Part shown: in pieces, positions 3,623 to 18,600 of the stretch
Layout of the letters: each line of letters starts with the position of its first letter
Numbering within the stretch: position 1 is the first letter of the stretch
From: Thermoplasmata archaeon
Lineage (GTDB): Archaea; Thermoplasmatota; Thermoplasmata; RBG-16-68-12
Length of the DNA: 43,898 nt
Assembly: GCA_035299725.1 (NCBI GenBank)
Contig: DATGWB010000023.1
Span: 1 to 43,898, forward strand
Direction of reading: 5' to 3'
Position numbers and translations under genes: made by a program
The notes under the pieces: model-generated
The model's input: the letters and a program-made list of their open reading frames with translations, nothing else
What the model was told of the DNA's origin: nothing
Database searches by the model: none

Positions 3623-4249
3623 TCACTGGTTCCAGGGTAGCAGCAATCGCGCCTCGCGCGTCCCGACGACATCCCAGCGGCCGGGTTCGCCGTCCGGCTC
3701 GCCTTCGACCCAGAATCCTCCAATCGTCATGTCGTAGCCATGAGTCGGGTCCAGGGCGACCGTACAACCGAGCTTCCGGCGGTATGCCCGCGTCGTCCAA
3801 CCGAGTTCGTGATTCCGGGACCACTCCCGCCGCTTCAGCGCCAGAACGACCTCGAGCCACTGGACGCGCTCGGCGGGTCGGCCGCGCGAGATCCGCCGCA
3901 GCTCGTCCGCGACGTAGTCGAGGTCGGTCCGCGAGAGGCTCGCCGCGCCGTCCTCGCCGGTGTGGGAGTGGAAGCCGCCGAGCACCGCATATCCGACGTC
4001 GAGGTTCTCGATCGCCCCCCGGGCCCGTTTGGCCGCCTTCTCGTTCCCGTGGCTCACCCAGTTCGGCTTGCGGTCCTCCGTCTGGAGCGGATAGGCCGCG
4101 CGCAGGACCGTCACCTCACGGGGACGCTGCCGCATGATCCGGGTCCCCCGATTCCCGACCAAGAAGCCGTTCGTCTCTCGGTTGTATGCCTCGACGGCGG
4201 AGGTGACGAGGCCGACGAAAGCGCTGCGTTCGACGACGATGTTGTCCAT
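3623..4249 (-). CDS. JAB/MPN (JAMM-type) metalloprotease-domain protein with C-terminal extension
   Basis: An upstream Glu context (NRETNGFLVG) precedes GGFHSHTGEDGAASLSRTDLD, that is H-x-H-x9-S-x2-D. This is JAMM-like with slightly longer spacing than the canonical x7. About 90 unassigned C-terminal residues. Confidence 0.65.
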   Translation of the reverse strand: MDNIVVERSAFVGLVTSAVEAYNRETNGFLVGNRGTRIMRQRPREVTVLRAAYPLQTEDRKPNWVSHGNEKAAKRARGAIENLDVGYAVLGGFHSHTGEDGAASLSRTDLDYVADELRRISRGRPAERVQWLEVVLALKRREWSRNHELGWTTRAYRRKLGCTVALDPTHGYDMTIGGFWVEGEPDGEPGRWDVVGTREARLLLPWNQ

Positions 4250-4420
4250 GCTGGGAGCCTCCGTTGAGGGGCCAGTCGAACGCCACCGGCTCTATAAGAA
4301 AGTGCCGTCCCCCGTCTCACGAATTCGTCTGGCTCGAGTTCAGACGGTTTCGTATCGACGTCATGGCCTCGGAGGCCAGAAAGGAAAAATAAGGACCCGA
4401 AGATACGCGCCGCGGCGGGA

Positions 4421-4663
4421 ATGAAAGTTTTTGCGACAGAGCTCCGGGGCAAGACCGTCATGACCGAAGACGGGCAGATCCTCGGCATCCTGGCGGACTT
4501 CCTTGTCGAGACGAAGACGGGCCGCATCCCGTCGCTCCTCGTGACGCCGGCGGATACGGTCGAGGTCCGCCTCTTCAAGACGGACCCCGAAGGCCGCCTC
4601 ACCCTGAGCTTCCGATCGATGAAGGCCGTGCGGGACGTGATCGTCGTGCAGCTCGCGGATTGA
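4421..4663 (+). CDS. PRC-barrel domain protein
   Basis: 80 aa. ELRGKTVMTEDGQILGILADFLVETKTGRIPSLLV is the typical PRC-barrel core. The AT-rich box GAAAAATAAGG lies about 30 nt upstream. Confidence 0.65.
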   Translation: MKVFATELRGKTVMTEDGQILGILADFLVETKTGRIPSLLVTPADTVEVRLFKTDPEGRLTLSFRSMKAVRDVIVVQLAD

Positions 4664-6039
4664 CCGCGGACTCGAGGCGTGGCGTGGCGAACCTCACTTT
4701 CTACGGCGGCGTCGGCGAGATCGGCGGGAACAAGATCCTCATCGAGGACCGGGACGCGCGGATCTGGCTCGACATGGGCGCCCCGTTCGACTTGGGCGAG
4801 GAATACTTCGTCGAGTTCCTTCAGCCGCGAGAACGGTTCGGCCTACGGGATTACTTCGCGCTGGATCTCATGCGCAGGATTCCAGGACTCTACTCGTCGG
4901 AAGCGCTCGACCCGACCGACATGGCCTGGGAGCCGCCTGCGTTTTCGTCCATTTTCATTACCCACGTCCACTACGACCACACGCAACAGCTGAAGTTCGT
5001 CGACCCGAACATCCCGGTCCACCTCGGGGAGGGCGCGCGGACGATCCTCGAGTCGCTCGACACGACCGCGCGGGCGCCGTTCTTGAAACTCGGTACGCAT
5101 GCCTACCAGACGTTCCGGTCCGGACAAGCGAGGACCGTCGATGGCCTCGAGGTCGAGCCGATCCATGTCGACCACAGCGCGCCGGCGGCGTACGGTTACC
5201 TGGTGCACACGAGCGAGGGCACGATCGCGTATACGGGGGACCTCCGCCACCACGGCCCCAAAAAGGCGCTGACGGACGACTTCATCCGCGCCGCAGCGGC
5301 GGCGAAACCGATCATCCTGATCACCGAAGGCACGCGGGTCACGCCGGACGATCCCCGAGGGACCCTGACAGAGGCCGACGTGAAGGCCGACGCGATCCGG
5401 CTCCTCACGCCGCTCAAAGAAAAACTTGCGATCGTCACGTTCCCGGGACGCGACGTGGACCGGATTCGCACGTTCTTCGAGGCCGCTCAAGCCGTGGGCC
5501 GCAAGTTTGTCGTGAATGCGAAAACAGCCCACCTGCTCCTCACACTCCAGAAGGACACGCACATCGCCGTCCCCGACGTGACACGGGAGGGGGACCTGGT
5601 GCTGTTCGACCGGCTCATGAGGAAGACGGATCCGTGGGAGAAAGAGCTCCAGGCGAAACTCAAAGATCGCGTCGTGACCGCGGAGCAGATCGCGGCTCGG
5701 CCGTCCGAATACCTCGTGCAGCTCGATTTCTGGCACCTGCCCGAGCTCGTGGACCTGCGGCCGCCACCCGGTTCGCCGTTCATTCACTCGAAGAGCGAGC
5801 CGTTCGAGGAGGACGACGTCAACGACGCCGTCTTGCAACACTGGCTCGATCGATTCGGCCTAGAGCGACACCAATTGCATGCCTCCGGACATCTGAGCGA
5901 ACGAGAGGTTGGGGACATGATCCGGGCGATCGATGCCAAGGTCGTGATGCCGGTCCACACGCAACACGCCGACCGGTTTACTCGGCTGGCTCGCCGCGTC
6001 GTCCAGCCGATCCGCTTCGAAGCGATGGCCCTCGGGTAA
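4660..6039 (+). CDS. MBL-fold / beta-CASP ribonuclease, archaeal RNase J-like
   Basis: N-terminal FYGGVGEIGGNKILIED plus the metallo-beta-lactamase motif ITHVHYDHTQQ. Later His/Asp motifs (HVDHS, HASGH, PVHTQH) fit beta-CASP. About 459 aa. The start (TTG 4660, overlapping the PRC stop as TTGA) is uncertain. Confidence 0.7.
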   Translation: MTADSRRGVANLTFYGGVGEIGGNKILIEDRDARIWLDMGAPFDLGEEYFVEFLQPRERFGLRDYFALDLMRRIPGLYSSEALDPTDMAWEPPAFSSIFITHVHYDHTQQLKFVDPNIPVHLGEGARTILESLDTTARAPFLKLGTHAYQTFRSGQARTVDGLEVEPIHVDHSAPAAYGYLVHTSEGTIAYTGDLRHHGPKKALTDDFIRAAAAAKPIILITEGTRVTPDDPRGTLTEADVKADAIRLLTPLKEKLAIVTFPGRDVDRIRTFFEAAQAVGRKFVVNAKTAHLLLTLQKDTHIAVPDVTREGDLVLFDRLMRKTDPWEKELQAKLKDRVVTAEQIAARPSEYLVQLDFWHLPELVDLRPPPGSPFIHSKSEPFEEDDVNDAVLQHWLDRFGLERHQLHASGHLSEREVGDMIRAIDAKVVMPVHTQHADRFTRLARRVVQPIRFEAMALG

Positions 6040-6067
6040 AAGGACCTCCCTTCCGCCGCGGATTCGG

Positions 6068-6826
6068 TCAGAGCGCCTCGAGGACGCACCGCGCGAAGGT
6101 CAGGTACCCCGTGTGGCCGAGGGGCGCGAACGAGGGATGGGTCCCGGATTCGGAAGCCTCGATCTCCCGCTCGATGATCTCGACCGTCCGAATTTCCACG
6201 AACGTCCCGGCCCGTAAGGCAGCGACGGTGCGGTTCACCTGCTCGACGTTGGGCGAGTACGACCCGAGGTGGCCACAGGGTCGAAGGGCGCTCGCCGCAG
6301 TCCGCACCACCTCCCAAGGATCCGGGATGTCGACGATGAACGCGTCTGCGTCCCGTTCCGCGATTCCGGACCGGGGATCTCCCAACTTGAACTCGACGCG
6401 GTCCGCAAACCCTGCCGCCGCCACGTTTTCACGCGCGCGAGCCAGAAAGTCGGGCCTCAAATCATACGAGACGACGCGACCCTTCGGGCCGACCGCGTTC
6501 GCGAGCGCGACTGTTACGGCACCGGACCCGGAACCGACCTCGATGACGAAATCACCGGGTTTCACGTCGGTGTTCCATACAAGGGCCGGCAGGTCTTTGG
6601 GACCGACAATCTGGGCCTTCCGGCTCACCGCGGTAACCGTGTCGCGGATGGATGGCGTTACAACCAGGAACGATCGGCCTCCTACCGTCCACCGCCGACC
6701 AATCAACGCGACCAGGCTTTCCGCCCGAACAACGCCAAGCCGCGGCACCTTCACAGTTTCTCGGTCGAGGACAACCATCTGTTTCCTGCCCGAGGGTTCG
6801 AGCAGGATGACGCGAGTAGGGCCCAT
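6068..6826 (-). CDS. trmI: tRNA (adenine-N1)-methyltransferase TrmI (Gcd14 family)
   Basis: SAM-binding motif VIEVGSGSGAVTVALA, then VVSYDLRPDF...ARENV and DAFIVDIPDPWEVV, typical of TrmI/Gcd14. Confidence 0.8.
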   Translation of the reverse strand: MGPTRVILLEPSGRKQMVVLDRETVKVPRLGVVRAESLVALIGRRWTVGGRSFLVVTPSIRDTVTAVSRKAQIVGPKDLPALVWNTDVKPGDFVIEVGSGSGAVTVALANAVGPKGRVVSYDLRPDFLARARENVAAAGFADRVEFKLGDPRSGIAERDADAFIVDIPDPWEVVRTAASALRPCGHLGSYSPNVEQVNRTVAALRAGTFVEIRTVEIIEREIEASESGTHPSFAPLGHTGYLTFARCVLEAL

Positions 6827-12714: not shown

Positions 12715-12933
12715 GTGACCAAAACGCCGCTCGCGATGTATCCCGGGTATCCGCCCGGCTATGCGTACCCTCTGTCTACGCCGCCTCCTCCGGCCCAACC
12801 CGCTCCAACTGCCGCTAGCGCGGCTGGTCCGCCTCCCGCGGCATGGACGGGTCGGTTCTGCACGAGCTGCGGTTCGCCGATCGCAAGCGGGGTCTCGTTC
12901 TGCCCGAACTGCGGCACCCGGGTCGCGCCGTGA
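12715..12933 (+). CDS. Pro-rich zinc-ribbon protein (possibly the 3' part of a frame-disrupted membrane protein gene)
   Basis: C-terminal CTSCGSPIASGVSFCPNCG is a classic zinc ribbon, preceded by low-complexity P/A/Y sequence. See the finding on 12573..12933. Confidence 0.45.
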   Translation: MTKTPLAMYPGYPPGYAYPLSTPPPPAQPAPTAASAAGPPPAAWTGRFCTSCGSPIASGVSFCPNCGTRVAP

Positions 12934-12952
12934 CTCGTCGCGCGATGCCTTT

Positions 12953-14281
12953 ATGGCGGGACAGTCTTCTCCGACGCTCGGTGCGGACGTGAAGAGTTCC
13001 GAGGTGTCGGGCTTCTACAAGAAGACCCCGCAGGACCGCTGGCAAGTCATCCGCTCGTTCGGCGAGCTCTCGGACGCAGAGGTCGAGACGATCCAGAACA
13101 CGGGTGCGCTCAAGTTCGACCAGGTCGACCGGATGATCGAAAACGTCGTCGGAGCCATGCCAGTGCCCCTCGGGATCGCGGTGAATTTCCAAGTGAATGG
13201 CCGGGATTATCTCGTGCCGATGGCAATCGAGGAGCCGAGCGTCGTCGCCGCGGCCTCGAACGCGGCCCGGATGGCCCGTGAACGAGGCGGCTTCTCGGCG
13301 AGCACGTCCGGTCCCATCATGATTGGCCAGATCCAACTCGTCGGAGTCTCGGATCCGCACGGCGCGCGGATGACGATCCTTCATCACAAGGATGAAATCC
13401 TCTCGATCGCGAACGAGAAGGATCCGATGCTGGTGAAGGTCGGCGGCGGAGCGAAGGACGTCGAGGTCCGCGTCGTGGACACGAAACGGGGCCACATGGT
13501 CGTCACACACCTCGTCGTCGACTGCCGCGACGCGATGGGGGCCAACGCCGTGAACACGATGGCGGAGGCAATCGCCCCGCACATCGAGAAGTGGACGGGC
13601 GGTCGCGTCTACCTCCGGATCATTTCGAATCTCGCGGTTCGTCGCCTCGCGCGCGCCCGGGCGGTGTTCGCGAAGGACGCCATCCGTACCGAGGACATCC
13701 CCGGCGAAGACGTCGTCGAAGGAATCCTCGAGGCCTACGCGTTCGCGGATGCGGATCCGTTCCGCTGTGCGACGCACAACAAGGGCATCATGAACGGGAT
13801 TGACGCGGTCGTCCTTGCGACCGGCAACGACTGGCGAGCAATCGAGGCCGGCGCCCATGCGTACGCGGCATGGAAGTCCGGCGGCTACCGGTCCCTCACC
13901 GCGTGGGAGAAAGACGTCAATGGAGACCTCGTCGGGACGATCGAGCTGCCCATGGCCGTCGGCCTGGTCGGCGGCGCAACGGCCGTCCATCCCACCGCAA
14001 AGGCGAATGTCCACCTTCTCGGGGTCAAGTCGGCACAAGAACTCGCGGAGGTCATCGCCTCGGTCGGCTTGGCGCAAAACTTCGCCGCCCTGCGTGCGTT
14101 GGCGACGGAGGGCATTCAACGCGGGCACATGTCGCTCCACGCGCGGAACGTCGCGGCGACGGTCGGAGCCGTCGGCGAGGAGGTCGACCGCGTGGCCGAA
14201 ATCCTCGTGAAGGAACGGAAAGTGCGGATGGACCGAGCGAAAGAGGTCCTGTCGGAGCTCCGGTCGCGAGAACCCAAGTGA
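12953..14281 (+). CDS. hmgA: Class II hydroxymethylglutaryl-CoA reductase
   Basis: I trimmed the track ORF (12761..14281) to ATG 12953. MIENVVGAMPVPLGIAVNFQVNGRDYLVPMAIEEPSVVAAASNAARM and DAMGANAVNTMAEA closely resemble class II (Pseudomonas mevalonii-type) HMGR. About 442 aa. Confidence 0.9.
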   Translation: MAGQSSPTLGADVKSSEVSGFYKKTPQDRWQVIRSFGELSDAEVETIQNTGALKFDQVDRMIENVVGAMPVPLGIAVNFQVNGRDYLVPMAIEEPSVVAAASNAARMARERGGFSASTSGPIMIGQIQLVGVSDPHGARMTILHHKDEILSIANEKDPMLVKVGGGAKDVEVRVVDTKRGHMVVTHLVVDCRDAMGANAVNTMAEAIAPHIEKWTGGRVYLRIISNLAVRRLARARAVFAKDAIRTEDIPGEDVVEGILEAYAFADADPFRCATHNKGIMNGIDAVVLATGNDWRAIEAGAHAYAAWKSGGYRSLTAWEKDVNGDLVGTIELPMAVGLVGGATAVHPTAKANVHLLGVKSAQELAEVIASVGLAQNFAALRALATEGIQRGHMSLHARNVAATVGAVGEEVDRVAEILVKERKVRMDRAKEVLSELRSREPK

Positions 14282-14584
14282 GGAATATTTTCGGACCGGA
14301 ATATTCGCACCTGAGGTAAGAAGCTGTGACGTATAATATACGTGCCGAAGACGGTACTACCAATATTTTTCCACGGAGCACAGAATTCCCGACGTTCAAT
14401 GCTACGAATTAGCATGGAAGCCCCGATCGAGCTCTATAAATATCTATCAAAACAGATAAAAGTTGAGCCTCGCCGACCAGGTTCTTGCCCTCTTTGAGAG
14501 ATGTTTATCGTACATCAGTGCGTCAGACTTTCGTCCGACCGGCAGTCTTTCATAGTTTGACGTTCCTTCGCCGCGTCGGGATGG

Positions 14585-15505
14585 GTGCGCACGGTTCGCG
14601 TCGCGATCTACACTAGAGTGTCGACGGAGGACCAAGCCAAGGAAGGCTTTTCCCTGGAGGCGCAGCGCGAACGCCTCGAGGCATATTGCCTGGCCCGCGA
14701 CTGGTCCGTTGCGGCCCGATACGTCGACGAGGGCCATTCCGGCCGAAACATCCGTCGTCCGGCGTACCAGAAGATGATGGCGGAGCGGGACCGATGGGAC
14801 GCCCTCCTGGTCATCAAGATGGACCGGATCCACAGGAACTCCCGGAACTTCATGGAAATGATGGAGAACCTCCAGGAATGGGGGAAGGACTTCGTCTCGG
14901 CGTCGGAGTCGTTGGACACCTCGACCGCGATGGGCCGATTCGTCATGGACATCATTCAACGGATCGCGCAGCTCGAGTCGGAGCAGATCGGCGAGCGGGT
15001 GAAGATGGGGATGACCCAGAAGGCGCGGGTCGGACCCGGGATCCTGGGATTCCATCCACCGCTCGGTTACGATGTCACGGAGGGCCGGCTCGTCCCGATC
15101 GAGGACGAGGCAGAGGTCGTGCGCGAGATGTTCGACCTGTGCCTGAACGGCCGGACTCTCGAGGAGACCGCTCGCGAACTGAATGCCAACGGCCGGCGGA
15201 CGAAACTCGGCACCTCGTGGACGCCGATCAAGGTCTACCGCATCCTCCACAATCCGGTCTACGCCGGTTTCCTCCGATGGGATGGAATCGTCCGGAAGGC
15301 CGACCACGATCCCCTCGTGGCGGTCAAAGGGTTCAACCTAGCCCAAGAGCGCTTGAGGTCGAGGGCGCTGCTCTCAAACGCGCACGCCCCGCCCTTGATT
15401 CTTCCGATATTCCAAGTGAAAAAGACTAACGACAGCGACGTTCCGGGAGGACCGGGAGCACATCTAGTCTCCGCACGCCGGCCGCAGGTCCCTGAGGAGG
15501 CCTAA
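14585..15505 (+). CDS. Serine recombinase (resolvase catalytic domain + recombinase domain; lacks a C-terminal zinc-ribbon/coiled-coil domain)
   Basis: VAIYTRVSTEDQ (catalytic Ser motif), GHSGRNIRRPAYQKMM, LLVIKMDRIHRNSRNF and AQLESEQIGERVKMGM define the resolvase domain. PLGYDV...ARELNANGRRTKLGTSWTPIKVYRILHNPVYAGFLRWDG defines the recombinase domain. GTG start. Confidence 0.85.
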   Translation: MRTVRVAIYTRVSTEDQAKEGFSLEAQRERLEAYCLARDWSVAARYVDEGHSGRNIRRPAYQKMMAERDRWDALLVIKMDRIHRNSRNFMEMMENLQEWGKDFVSASESLDTSTAMGRFVMDIIQRIAQLESEQIGERVKMGMTQKARVGPGILGFHPPLGYDVTEGRLVPIEDEAEVVREMFDLCLNGRTLEETARELNANGRRTKLGTSWTPIKVYRILHNPVYAGFLRWDGIVRKADHDPLVAVKGFNLAQERLRSRALLSNAHAPPLILPIFQVKKTNDSDVPGGPGAHLVSARRPQVPEEA

Positions 15506-16236
15506 TGCAGGAAGGCCGGTGTCAGCGGTGTTGGAGCACGAAGAACCTAGTGAGCCATGAGGTCGACGCGAACCCCCGCGCCGATCCGACAATCCGGCGG
15601 GAGAAGGTCCTCCTCTGCAAGCATTGCGTGGACGGATCTCCGGGCGACGCCCTCCTGTTCTGGGAGGTCTACATGCGATTCGGATCGACCCGCGAAATGC
15701 TCCAGCACTACGCCTCGGAATCCGAGGACGAGGCGCTCCGGAAACTGTGCGTGGAACGCGATCTGAACGAGCGCGAGGTGATGCGGCGGGCCCGAGGGCT
15801 GCAAAGCGTCGAGGCCCTGAACAACGCCGTCAAGAAAGCGAACGCATTCCTCACCTACGCTAGCCCGTACGGATACGACTACGTGGACGGTGTCCTCCAG
15901 CTGAAGAACGAGGAGGCTCGTGTGGTCTCCCTCATCTTCAGGCGCTATCTCGAAGGGAAGGGAATCGCCAAGATCTGCCAGGAGCTCAACCGGGACGGGT
16001 ATCGAACGAAGACCGGTCGAGCGTGGGCGAGCCAGACGATCGCGAACATCCTGAGCAACCCGGTGTACTGCGGCCTCGCCCGTCTGAACGGCGGTATCAA
16101 ACGCGGAAAGCACGAACCGCTCATCGAGATCGAAACGTTTAATCGGGTGCAGAACGAGATGCAACGCCGGATCCGAAGACCCGACCAACGAAAGGCCGAT
16201 CCGCCGCAGCTCCGACTCGAGGACTACCGCGAGTAG
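15505..16236 (+). CDS. Recombinase-domain protein without a resolvase catalytic domain; N-terminal Cys4 zinc-ribbon-like segment
   Basis: PYGYDYVDGVLQLKNEEARVVSLIFRRYLEGKGIAKICQELNRDGYRTKTGRAWASQTIANILSNPVYCGLARLNG...HEPLIEIETFNRVQ parallels the recombinase domain of the upstream gene. The N-terminus has CQRC...x31...CKHC. No YxRVSxxxQ motif. The start overlaps the upstream stop (TAATG). Confidence 0.7.
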   Translation: MQEGRCQRCWSTKNLVSHEVDANPRADPTIRREKVLLCKHCVDGSPGDALLFWEVYMRFGSTREMLQHYASESEDEALRKLCVERDLNEREVMRRARGLQSVEALNNAVKKANAFLTYASPYGYDYVDGVLQLKNEEARVVSLIFRRYLEGKGIAKICQELNRDGYRTKTGRAWASQTIANILSNPVYCGLARLNGGIKRGKHEPLIEIETFNRVQNEMQRRIRRPDQRKADPPQLRLEDYRE

Positions 16237-16395
16237 TGTCCCATTGCGGAGATCCTCACTCTGCTCTCCCTGAAGATAGGACGCGCTCGAGAATCCGGGG
16301 GAAACGGGTGAATTCGCTGCCTCCGGCCACCTCCATCCGTATACGGTCGGTAATCCGAGGCGGAATGGGGACCGCGGGACGCTTCGGATTGACAA

Positions 16396-16411
16396 CACAT
16401 AGTACTATGTG
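16396..16411. promoter_or_regulatory. Perfect 16-bp palindrome CACATAGTACTATGTG (candidate operator)
   Basis: Verified self-complementary by eye. It sits about 35 nt upstream of the small RHH ORF and just 5' of an AT-rich CATATAGGATTATG box. Confidence 0.5.
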
Positions 16412-16444
16412 CGCATATAGGATTATGTGGTCGAGGGGACTACC

Positions 16445-16597
16445 GTGACAAAACGTGTCAAGGACCTAACCACGGTCCAACTCACGACGCAAACTCGGGA
16501 TCGGCTGTACCGCCTGAAGTTCCGGAAGACGTACGATGAGTTTCTCGAAGAACTGTGCGACCTGTACGAAAGATCTGAAAAGGGCCTTGAAAGCTGA
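16445..16597 (+). CDS. Small ribbon-helix-helix (CopG/Arc-like) protein, 50 codons, not in the supplied ORF track
   Basis: My own translation from GTG 16445: VTKRVKDLTTVQLTTQTRDRLYRLKFRKTYDEFLEELCDLYERSEKGLES*. A beta-strand-like TVQLTTQT is followed by two amphipathic helices, the RHH layout. An alternative GTG start lies at 16427, and an in-frame TAG at 16418. Confidence 0.45.
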   Translation: MTKRVKDLTTVQLTTQTRDRLYRLKFRKTYDEFLEELCDLYERSEKGLES

Positions 16598-16730
16598 GTC
16601 AAGCTCCGACATATATTTTCTAATATGGTCACGTAACAGCTAAACAAAACCTAGCTCCATCCGATTTCGCCCGTTTCGGCTCTCCCGCTGATAGGATTAT
16701 GACCGTTCGCCGCGTTTCGCGGGTCGCGAC

Positions 16731-18101
16731 ATGACAGGTTGGGCGGAGAAGTACCGGCCCAAGACCCTCGAGGACATCGTCGGGAATCCCACCGCGGTCG
16801 CCGAATTGCGAAAGTGGGCCGCGGCCTGGGACAAGGGTCGGCCGGACAGGCGGGCGGTCATCCTCCAGGGCGACCCCGGGATCGGGAAGACCAGCGCGGC
16901 CCTCGCGCTCGCGAACGAGATGGGGTGGAGCGCCATCGAGATGAACGCCTCGGAAAGCCGCAACGCTGAAGCGATCCGCAAGGTGGCCACCCGCGGGGCC
17001 GTGCTCCAGACGTTCACCGAGACGGGCGACTTCGTTCGATCCCGCGAAGGAGGCCGCAAGCTCATCGTCCTGGACGAGGCGGACAACGTCTTCGGCCGCG
17101 AAGACAAGGGCGGGATCGGCGCGATCGTCGAGATGATCCAGGAGACCCGGCAACCGGTCGTCCTCATCGCGAACGACTACTACGCGCTGACGCGCCGCTC
17201 GTCATCGCTCAAGCGACTATGCAAGACCATTAAATTTCAAGGCGTTCACGAGGACGCGATGAAAAACATACTTCGAACCATCGCTTCGAAGGAAGGCGTC
17301 GAGGTCGCCGACGACGTCCTCGCGGTGATCGTCGAGCGGGCGGGGGGAGATTTGCGGTCGGCGATCAATGACCTCGAGTCTCTCGCGATCGGCAAGCGCT
17401 CTTTGGTCGCCGAAGCCACGCGGTCTCTCGGATACCGCGACCGAGCGCGGACGATCTTCCCGGTCCTCGAGGAGATCTTGCGGTCGGGCGATGCCCGTCG
17501 AGCGCGTGACGCGGTGCGGGAGCTGGACGAGTCTCCAGAAGATCTCATCCTCTGGGTAGACCAGAACCTCGGTCACGAATATGGCCGACCGGACGACCTC
17601 GTCCGCGGCTACGAGGCCCTGAGCCGAGCCGACATCTACCTCGGGCGCACCCGACGGCGGCAGCGCTACGGCCTCTGGTCATACGCGAGCGAGATGATGT
17701 CGAGCGGCGTCGCGGTGGCCCGCAAAGGCCGCGCCCGCGGGAGCCAACTCGAGTTCCCGTACTATCTGATCCAGATGTCGCGCTCCCGCGCGCAGCGGGG
17801 CGCCCGCAACTCCGTCGCGAAGAAACTGGCCCAAGCGTTGCACGTCTCGCAATCCACCGTGCGCACCGACCTCCTCCCGACCATCCGGATGCTCTACGCC
17901 GACGACGAGGAGTTGCGGATCCAGCTCACGGCAGAGCTTGCACTGGACGAACGAGAGGTGGCCTTCCTCCTCGATGAGTCGGAGACGAGCCACGCCGTGA
18001 AGCACCTGCTTGAGAAGGCGGCGAAAATCAAGGGTCTCCCGGACCGGGAGTCGGGAAGTGGCCAGCTCTCCTCTTTCGGCGAAGACGACGATGCAGCCTG
18101 A
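16731..18101 (+). CDS. rfcL: Replication factor C large subunit
   Basis: WAEKYRPKTLEDIVGN, Walker A GDPGIGKTSAALALA, LIVLDEADNV and an acidic C-terminal tail (FGEDDDAA, PCNA-interaction-like) are typical of archaeal RfcL. Confidence 0.9.
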   Translation: MTGWAEKYRPKTLEDIVGNPTAVAELRKWAAAWDKGRPDRRAVILQGDPGIGKTSAALALANEMGWSAIEMNASESRNAEAIRKVATRGAVLQTFTETGDFVRSREGGRKLIVLDEADNVFGREDKGGIGAIVEMIQETRQPVVLIANDYYALTRRSSSLKRLCKTIKFQGVHEDAMKNILRTIASKEGVEVADDVLAVIVERAGGDLRSAINDLESLAIGKRSLVAEATRSLGYRDRARTIFPVLEEILRSGDARRARDAVRELDESPEDLILWVDQNLGHEYGRPDDLVRGYEALSRADIYLGRTRRRQRYGLWSYASEMMSSGVAVARKGRARGSQLEFPYYLIQMSRSRAQRGARNSVAKKLAQALHVSQSTVRTDLLPTIRMLYADDEELRIQLTAELALDEREVAFLLDESETSHAVKHLLEKAAKIKGLPDRESGSGQLSSFGEDDDAA

Positions 18102-18600
18102 TGGGAGAGCCCGACAACGGGGGCTGGTCGACCGCCGGATCGTGTTCGCGGACTCGGAGCGCGTGGCCAACTATGTGTTCCCGTTCGTCGATCGGCGGTG
18201 GCGGGTGCCGTTCGTCTTGGCGGACCTGGGCATGGACCCACCGTTCGTCGTCCACGGCCCTTTCCGGCTCGATCAATTTCGCTTCCGGACGGCGCTTCGA
18301 ACAAGCGATCTTCGACGGATTGAATCCGTTTCGATCGCAGATCTCAGGGGGCTCATCCACTACGACCCGGGGTGGGTGTTTCGCCGCGTCGCCGATGTGG
18401 ACCGCAGCTGGAAGGAGGCCGTCTTCGCGTCGAATGTCGCAGCGCCGTTTCGACACGGAGGCCGAGAGCACACAATCCGCGACCTCGTGTTCTCGCCCGA
18501 TCTCAACTACCTCGAGGAAATCGAGGCGAAAGTTGGGCTGTTTCGGACCGTGAGCTTTCATCCAGGCGACATCGACTTGCTCACATTGCGTCGAGAGTAA
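18091..18600 (+). CDS. Hypothetical protein (no family recognised)
   Basis: I trimmed the track ORF 18010..18600 to ATG 18091, which overlaps the rfcL end by 11 nt. Codon third positions are strongly G/C-biased like real genes, and the composition is protein-like. The opposite-strand ORF 18028..18693 is Arg/Pro-rich and looks spurious. Confidence 0.5.
   Translation: MQPDGRARQRGLVDRRIVFADSERVANYVFPFVDRRWRVPFVLADLGMDPPFVVHGPFRLDQFRFRTALRTSDLRRIESVSIADLRGLIHYDPGWVFRRVADVDRSWKEAVFASNVAAPFRHGGREHTIRDLVFSPDLNYLEEIEAKVGLFRTVSFHPGDIDLLTLRRE

Follow-up and report, generated by a model that had tools for sequence, protein, structure and literature searches.

What is the task of a serine recombinase (SR) that is kept at a fixed position of an archaeal chromosome, next to a gene of the replication machinery? 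The question is raised by a locus on contig DATGWB010000023.1 of a Thermoplasmata archaeon (assembly GCA_035299725.1), which was analyzed over its 43,898 nucleotides (in the following termed the window). Here, hmgA and rfcL, encoding HMG-CoA reductase and the large subunit of replication factor C, enclose three genes: gene 1 (g1) for a catalytic SR, gene 2 (g2) for a non-catalytic paralogue of g1, and a small gene for a DUF7557 protein. An initial annotation had interpreted g1 and g2 as a coupled pair in a lower-GC island, resulting from the integration of a large serine recombinase (LSR) now split in two or decayed. We found that g1, g2, and the DUF7557 gene are a vertically inherited and strongly constrained cassette, nearly always single-copy, and that one conserved slot upstream of rfcL holds either this SR cassette or xerS, a gene for a XerA-like tyrosine recombinase, even among close relatives of one genus.

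The recombinase slot upstream of rfcL

Homologues of both proteins, many of them close, were found in uncultured Thermoplasmata and typically comprise 273 aa (g1) and 242 aa (g2). The g1-g2 pair was present in 38 of 41 relatives, representing six of the seven families of the order, and nearly always occupied one locus per genome. Contigs with g2 homologues of 82%, 59%, and 46% identity carried the same block of g1, g2, a small open reading frame (ORF), and rfcL, in two cases with a DUF7557 match. Searches of 31 loci by tblastn confirmed the gene order hmgA-g1-g2-(g3)-DUF7557-rfcL-orf169-tyw1, in which g3 is a third SR gene present in some genomes. The spacer between hmgA and g1 has a length of 296–318 bp in most relatives. 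Across the order g1 shows about 60% identity compared to about 53% for rfcL, and the ratios of nonsynonymous to synonymous substitution rates (dN/dS) within the genus were 0.06–0.17 for g1 and 0.02–0.08 for g2, compared to 0.03–0.09 for hmgA and 0.04–0.18 for rfcL. The family-level groupings of the SR tree agree with those of the rfcL tree. The DUF7557 gene accompanies the SR cassette and was not found at loci with a tyrosine recombinase.

The few relatives lacking the SR pair (G026, G028, G203, and G220) gave the best XerA-like matches, and in G026, G028, and G203 the XerA-like gene is located between hmgA and rfcL. This gene, xerS, encodes a tyrosine recombinase of 185 aa which consists of the catalytic domain only, without the N-terminal core-binding domain, and matches the XerA family best, followed by XerC and XerD. 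G026 and G203 have the organization hmgA-xerS-rfcL-tyw1, their close relatives G096 and G037 the organization hmgA-SR-DUF7557-rfcL-tyw1. When xerS-type and SR-type loci of the genus g3 (a genus label, distinct from the gene g3) were compared, the flanking homology ended at the hmgA stop codon and resumed at the rfcL start codon. The SR-carrying G096 and the xerS-carrying G203 are sisters in the rfcL tree. Five genomes of the order with SR gave no xerS orthologue and contained only full-length integrase-like genes of 31–32% identity elsewhere. In families f10 and f26 the adjacency xerS-rfcL-tyw1 is usual; xerS of these families is 62–65% identical to the G026 protein and their rfcL 43–45% identical to that of the window. 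Tandem SR genes are located directly upstream of rfcL in family f31 and about 6–7 kb away from it in f27. As a separate observation, several families have xerS immediately upstream of rfcL, and xerS is better conserved than rfcL itself.

For the distribution across the class, 251 genomes with a completeness of at least 80% were searched with a g2/recombinase-domain profile and a XerA model. SR and Xer are almost mutually exclusive in this set: among the genomes with SR, 17 had a XerA-like gene and 66 had none, and among those without SR, 155 had a XerA-like gene and 13 had none, these counts ignoring kinship, as related genomes are not independent. XerA exceeded its curated cut-off in only three SR-carrying genomes of the class and in no genome of the order, and a XerA-like match at E 1e-3 was absent from G000 and from 17/40 of its relatives. 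At the family level, SR was found in 14/14 genomes of f1, 7/7 of f7, and 31/31 of f11, and XerA-like genes in 0/14, 0/7, and 2/31 of them, respectively. Families f10 (0/33), f15 (0/33), f19 (0/33), and f22 (0/29) were devoid of SR and had XerA-like genes in 27/33, 32/33, 32/33, and 29/29 genomes. The f11 genomes are small and mostly complete or closed. This family may belong to the Methanomassiliicoccales, an order with cultured members, in which case the function of the SR genes would be open to tests with purified proteins.

Architecture of the cassette proteins

In the g1 protein, Pfam searches identified a Resolvase domain (PF00239; 1.3e-37; residues 6–150) and a Recombinase domain (PF07508; 3.5e-18; residues 173–260). 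The structural model comprises an alpha/beta catalytic domain (residues 1–107), the alphaE helix (115–149), the recombinase domain (RD; 162–259), and a disordered tail (277–306). Residues R11, S13, and D80-R81-x-x-R84 as well as a 30-residue stretch of alphaE were at least 90% conserved, and mostly invariant, in 31 sequences. The g1 protein matched the LSR integrase profile phrog_95 with 1.8e-91, and partial matches to CcrB, CcrC, and XisF were obtained. For both g1 and g2 the phrog_95 match stops at about position 360 of 651, so that the zinc-ribbon/coiled-coil half of LSRs is missing from both genes; Zn_ribbon_recom (PF13408) gave no Pfam match in either of them. HTH_7, the C-terminal helix-turn-helix of small resolvases, gave no Pfam match, and the Recombinase domain was found instead. 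In the window, g1 has an additional low-complexity C-terminus of 33 residues (15404–15502), which is absent from the usual 273-aa orthologues and disordered in the model. It ends in ..EA right before the coupled g2 start, as the orthologues do.

The g2 protein gave a Pfam match to Recombinase only (2.3e-23; residues 135–222), and a catalytic domain is absent. It is composed of a Cys4 beta-beta-alpha finger (about residues 6–44), three short helices (49–85), an alphaE-like long helix (89–119), and an RD (124–223). In the model, which has a predicted local distance difference test (pLDDT) value of 85.6, two strands and a helix are formed by residues 15–44, and the RD has the topology of that of g1. 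Using Foldseek, the g2 RD could be superposed on the LSR structures 4kis and 6dnw (LI integrase) with a root-mean-square deviation of 1.7–2.2 Å, and longer alignments with full-length integrases extended upstream of the RD and took in the long helix. None of 50 sequences deviates at C6, C9, C38, or C41. The N-terminus aligns with the canonical HNH motif (CxxC..HH..N..CxxCH) that P0098 and the orthologues of f2 and f3 possess. In g2 of the window and in most members of f1, f4, f6, and f7, all four Cys residues of this motif were retained, but its catalytic His pair and Asn have been lost. Only 3/50 g2 members keep the HNH catalytic residues, and these match PF01844 at up to 5.5e-11. A profile of the 120 N-terminal residues gave non-significant matches only when searched against PDB sequences (McrA HNH, E 0.43), and no g2 relatives were found in IMG/VR viral contigs. 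Hence, g2 is a g1 paralogue that exchanged its catalytic domain for an HNH finger, and this finger later turned into a structural zinc finger. The predicted complex of g1 (residues 1–275) with g2 obtained a score of 0.01, which speaks neither for nor against binding.

Much of the initial annotation agrees with these results. The motifs it cited are all present (YTRVSTEDQ, HDPL..F, two NPVY.G strings, C6xxC9...C38xxC41, and the TAATG overlap), and its genes, coordinates, and overlap were right, but the DUF7557 gene as third member of the unit had been left unmentioned. Its claim that g1 has complete catalytic and recombinase domains and lacks a zinc ribbon and coiled coil is borne out by Pfam, phrog_95, and the model, and its description of g2 as a protein with a paralogous RD and no catalytic domain by the PF07508 match. 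The picture of a translationally coupled, non-canonical pair made up of a catalytic g1 without the LSR C-terminal half and a dead partner therefore stands, but not the zinc ribbon or the integration and decay that had been attached to it: the proposal that the LSR zinc module was moved onto the partner has to be abandoned, since the Cys4 segment aligns with the HNH motif and both genes match the LSR profile up to the same point only.

The cassette is variable in its number of SR genes. The gene g3, located between g2 and the DUF7557 gene in some genomes of the same genus (L006 6769–7533; L029, L030, and L031), encodes a third, fully catalytic SR paralogue, and the g3 genes form a separate clade in the SR tree. 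Families f11, f27, f29, and f31 have two catalytic SR genes in tandem. G096, G037, and G036 carry one SR together with the DUF7557 gene, and this single SR has a g2-type RD, which in G096 and G037 shares 50–54% identity with g2-type RDs and 43–44% with the g1 RD of the same genus. That single-SR forms carry this type of RD suggests that the RD of g2 recognizes the ancestral site. Two other interpretations were considered and rejected: an origin of the single-SR form of G096 from a recent deletion that joined g1 to the RD of g2, as its RD has only 50–54% identity with g2-type RDs, and a g1-g2 fusion in P0131 (526 aa), which represents two SR genes read through a frameshift. In addition, the DNA of G096 and G032 is 90% identical from hmgA through the catalytic domain of g1 (L037 1–2708 versus L024 oriented 3866–6568). 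The identity ends where the RD starts, marking a recombination break at the domain boundary.

Among known systems, LSRs (LI/A118 Int, Bxb1, and PhiC31; CcrA/B/C; XisF) are similar to g1 in the catalytic domain, alphaE helix, and RD, and g2 shares the RD fold, with PF07508 following the alphaE helix in both genes. LSRs differ by their zinc-ribbon/coiled-coil half and by belonging to mobile elements with attachment (att) sites, whereas the cassette represents a fixed, vertically inherited core locus without att repeats. A two-gene SR pair also occurs in CcrA/CcrB, but both Ccr proteins are catalytic. Small serine resolvases (Tn3/gamma-delta, Sin, beta, and ParA), whose proven role is the resolution of replicon multimers, are comparable in their size of about 270 aa, in the combination of catalytic domain and alphaE, and in the location of the gene beside its own regulatory region. 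They have a C-terminal helix-turn-helix, whereas g1 has an LSR-type RD and the proposed accessory role falls to a dead paralogue encoded by a gene of its own. With Xer/dif systems (archaeal XerA; bacterial XerCD, XerS, and XerH) the cassette shares the status of a core recombinase, the slot upstream of rfcL that is otherwise held by xerS, and a distribution complementary to that of XerA. Xer proteins have the tyrosine recombinase fold, whereas g1 belongs to an unrelated fold and uses serine chemistry with double-strand breaks and subunit rotation; being a serine recombinase, g1 is therefore not a member of the Xer family, and only a like function is proposed. HNH endonucleases have the Cys4 beta-beta-alpha finger in common with g2 but possess the catalytic His pair and Asn, which are gone in g2 of the window. 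The likeness of g2 to small viral proteins with HNH and Recombinase domains is a low-score lead only. The cassette thus offers a natural case of a serine recombinase with a second DNA-binding module on a separate, catalytically dead paralogue.

Proposed function and candidate DNA sites

As the cassette is constrained, catalytically intact, located at the same position beside a replication gene, and complementary to Xer, the most economical explanation is that it performs the same housekeeping job. We infer that the Xer job was taken over by the cassette. Its interpretation, together with its position in the Xer slot, as a housekeeping site-specific recombinase that assumed the chromosome dimer/multimer resolution of Xer appears to us about evenly balanced between right and wrong. 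Mechanistically, g1 tetramers would carry out strand exchange. The g2 protein would bind DNA, because its RD and alphaE-like helix are kept and cleavage is impossible, and could serve as a non-catalytic architectural or targeting subunit, in analogy to resolvase subunits bound at accessory res sites. As for the DUF7557 protein, it may be a small regulator or a DNA-bending cofactor. To our knowledge, every described chromosome dimer-resolution system uses a tyrosine recombinase, namely XerCD, XerS, XerH, or XerA. A broader version, which we put forward only tentatively and think somewhat less likely to be right than wrong, is that an SR system, consisting either of a catalytic SR with a dead HNH-derived paralogue or, in Methanomassiliicoccales-type genomes, of two SR paralogues, displaced Xer in situ and resolves dimers in at least two Thermoplasmata orders, which would make it the first non-tyrosine chromosomal dimer resolvase. 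The SR cassette behaves as a core gene and is present in nearly every genome without a Xer-like gene, including all 31 f11 genomes. According to a review from 2021, archaeal serine recombinases had been observed in transposons only and had never been investigated in full (PMC8371274). Our literature searches for this module found no description of it, and a displacement of Xer from its slot by an SR cassette would be a new lead.

The region upstream of g1 contains a near-palindrome (site A) just upstream of a TATA-like box at 14548–14555. Within the genus, site A has been preserved amid otherwise divergent spacer sequence. GTCnGAC motifs akin to it surround the SR promoters in families f4, f9, f27, and f31, and 37 of 41 relatives contained the 7-4-7 pattern GTCNGAC-N4-GTCNGAC, with one to four occurrences in a genome; the reversed control pattern never occurred. 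The palindrome copies examined have a common promoter layout, in which a TATA box is followed by the palindrome and by GGGATGGG just before the start codon, and GGGATGGG is preserved as DNA in all families regardless of the reading frame. Of two other sites, site B (GTCAGAC-AAAG-GTCCGAC) precedes the gene of a conserved membrane protein without a Pfam family, and site C lacks both an obvious ORF and an Rfam match. In ten closed genomes of f11 and f29, the SR genes lie about 0.30–0.49 genome lengths away from the best cdc6 gene, with sizes being rounded and the genomes being related.

Several observations speak against a takeover of dimer resolution by the cassette. No recombination site was found for it. 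Besides site A, a genome contains one to three copies of the palindrome at other promoters, and this type of palindrome is also present in xerS genomes; for these reasons, site A looks like a transcription factor operator of a small regulon rather than an SR-specific crossover site, and its candidacy for the latter is weakened. In G259, a closed genome, the SR genes lie in tandem at 0.906 Mb and the sampled cumulative GC skew, which is weak, peaks at about 1.15–1.2 Mb, a distance of about 250 kb that gives no support for a terminus-linked site beside the genes. Some genomes have a single SR and no g2. The anticorrelation between SR and Xer rests on few independent transitions, roughly four: the deep split, genus g3, family f5, and genus g12. 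A Xer function of xerS would follow from homology, for a protein that has no N-terminal core-binding domain. Finally, some archaea without XerA have no known substitute (PMC2958812).

Part of these observations would fit a domesticated recombinase module with another job, such as programmed inversion or excision at other genomic positions, or pure DNA binding and regulation, whose position in the Xer slot is a historical accident. Conserved DNA near g1 is limited to one palindrome, which is associated with the promoter and shared with other promoters, the terminus check gave no support for a site linked to the terminus, and in family f7 rfcL alone is inverted, right beside the cassette. We nevertheless consider such a job rather improbable, although worth keeping in mind, since the cassette and xerS exclude each other at one slot even in close relatives, the nearby segments have no paired inverted or direct repeats, and the catalytic residues are strictly kept, which pure DNA binding does not need.

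The alternation of tyrosine and serine cassettes within genus g3 could also reflect competition between selfish, slot-specific cassettes (tyrosine, serine, or serine plus an HNH homing-type gene), which swap between species and persist by addiction or homing rather than through a benefit to the host. The mosaic of G096 and G032, with its identity stopping exactly at the boundary between catalytic domain and RD, and the additional SR paralogues (g3) of some genomes would agree with this, as would the small HNH and Recombinase-domain proteins of viral clusters, which are a low-score lead only (0.83–0.84). We regard this explanation as unlikely, because the cassette nearly always occupies one locus per genome and is present throughout the well-sampled families (14/14, 7/7, and 31/31), its family-level phylogeny is congruent with rfcL, its dN/dS values are as low as those of housekeeping genes, no g2 relatives occur in the viral contigs, and the g2 protein remained conserved after the HNH catalytic residues were lost.

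The lower-GC island of the initial annotation was confirmed for the spacers but not for the genes. The three non-coding spacers have GC contents of 47%, 57%, and 51%, compared to 63.7% for the window and 54–58% for other spacers, but the GC contents at third codon positions are 0.81 for g1 and 0.80 for g2, within the 0.75–0.86 of the neighbouring genes, and with respect to 4-mers both genes are closer to the window than the median of windows of the same size. No att-like direct repeats or meaningful inverted repeats flanking the cassette, no tRNA genes nearby, no Rfam families in the spacers or at site C, and no defence-system match of PADLOC among the window proteins were found. A recent integration, or a decaying large serine integrase split in two, is therefore highly improbable despite the AT-rich flanking spacers and the superficial likeness to a split LSR, as the composition of the genes is native, their dN/dS is low, att-like repeats and a tRNA gene are missing, the pair is fixed at this locus across the order under strong purifying selection, which had been named beforehand as the outcome that would refute integration, and a frameshifted LSR would not yield the second RD and HNH finger of g2.

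Features of the locus

The features of the locus and related elements at other loci are listed in Table 1. The stop codon TAA of g1 overlaps the ATG start codon of g2 in the sequence TAATG at 15503–15507. The DUF7557 (PF24434) match of the small ORF reached 30.0 bits compared to a gathering cut-off of 25.

Table 1. Coordinates of genes and DNA elements. Positions refer to the window unless a locus or contig is given.
Feature	Position	Strand	Remarks
hmgA (HMG-CoA reductase)	12953..14281	+	left anchor of the slot within this order (Pfam, tblastn synteny)
hmgA-g1 spacer	14282..14584	.	303 bp, AT-rich, holds the g1 promoter region
Site A, near-palindrome GTCAGAC-TTTC-GTCCGAC	14522..14539	.	candidate operator or recombinase-binding site
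GGGATGGG element	14578..14585	+	abuts the GTG start of g1
g1, catalytic serine recombinase	14585..15505	+	Pfam, conservation, model
g2, non-catalytic paralogue of g1	15505..16236	+	Pfam, alignment, model
Perfect 16-bp palindrome CACATAGTACTATGTG	16396..16411	.	upstream of the small DUF7557 gene
Small DUF7557 gene, ribbon-helix-helix-like	16445..16597	+	Pfam; part of the cassette
rfcL (replication factor C large subunit)	16731..18101	+	conserved right-hand anchor of the recombinase slot
xerS	L035 7673-8227	-	also L038 2479-3036; L052-L055
Further pattern copies	G000:C13:10067-10084 (L062 1501-1518); L076, L077, L078, L079, L080, L081		pattern search

In family f7 (L022, L023, and L026), the inverted rfcL lies between g1-g2-DUF7557 and tyw1, and no inverted repeats flanking it were found. 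An ORF of 169 aa at 18091–18600 of the window overlaps the end of rfcL. It is kept downstream of rfcL in relatives with 28–39% identity and therefore represents a real gene. A direct repeat of 26 nt with 77% identity (CGGGTCGCG.C.TGAC...) is located just before the starts of hmgA (12919–12944) and rfcL (16720–16745) and may be a common promoter-proximal element or a chance match.

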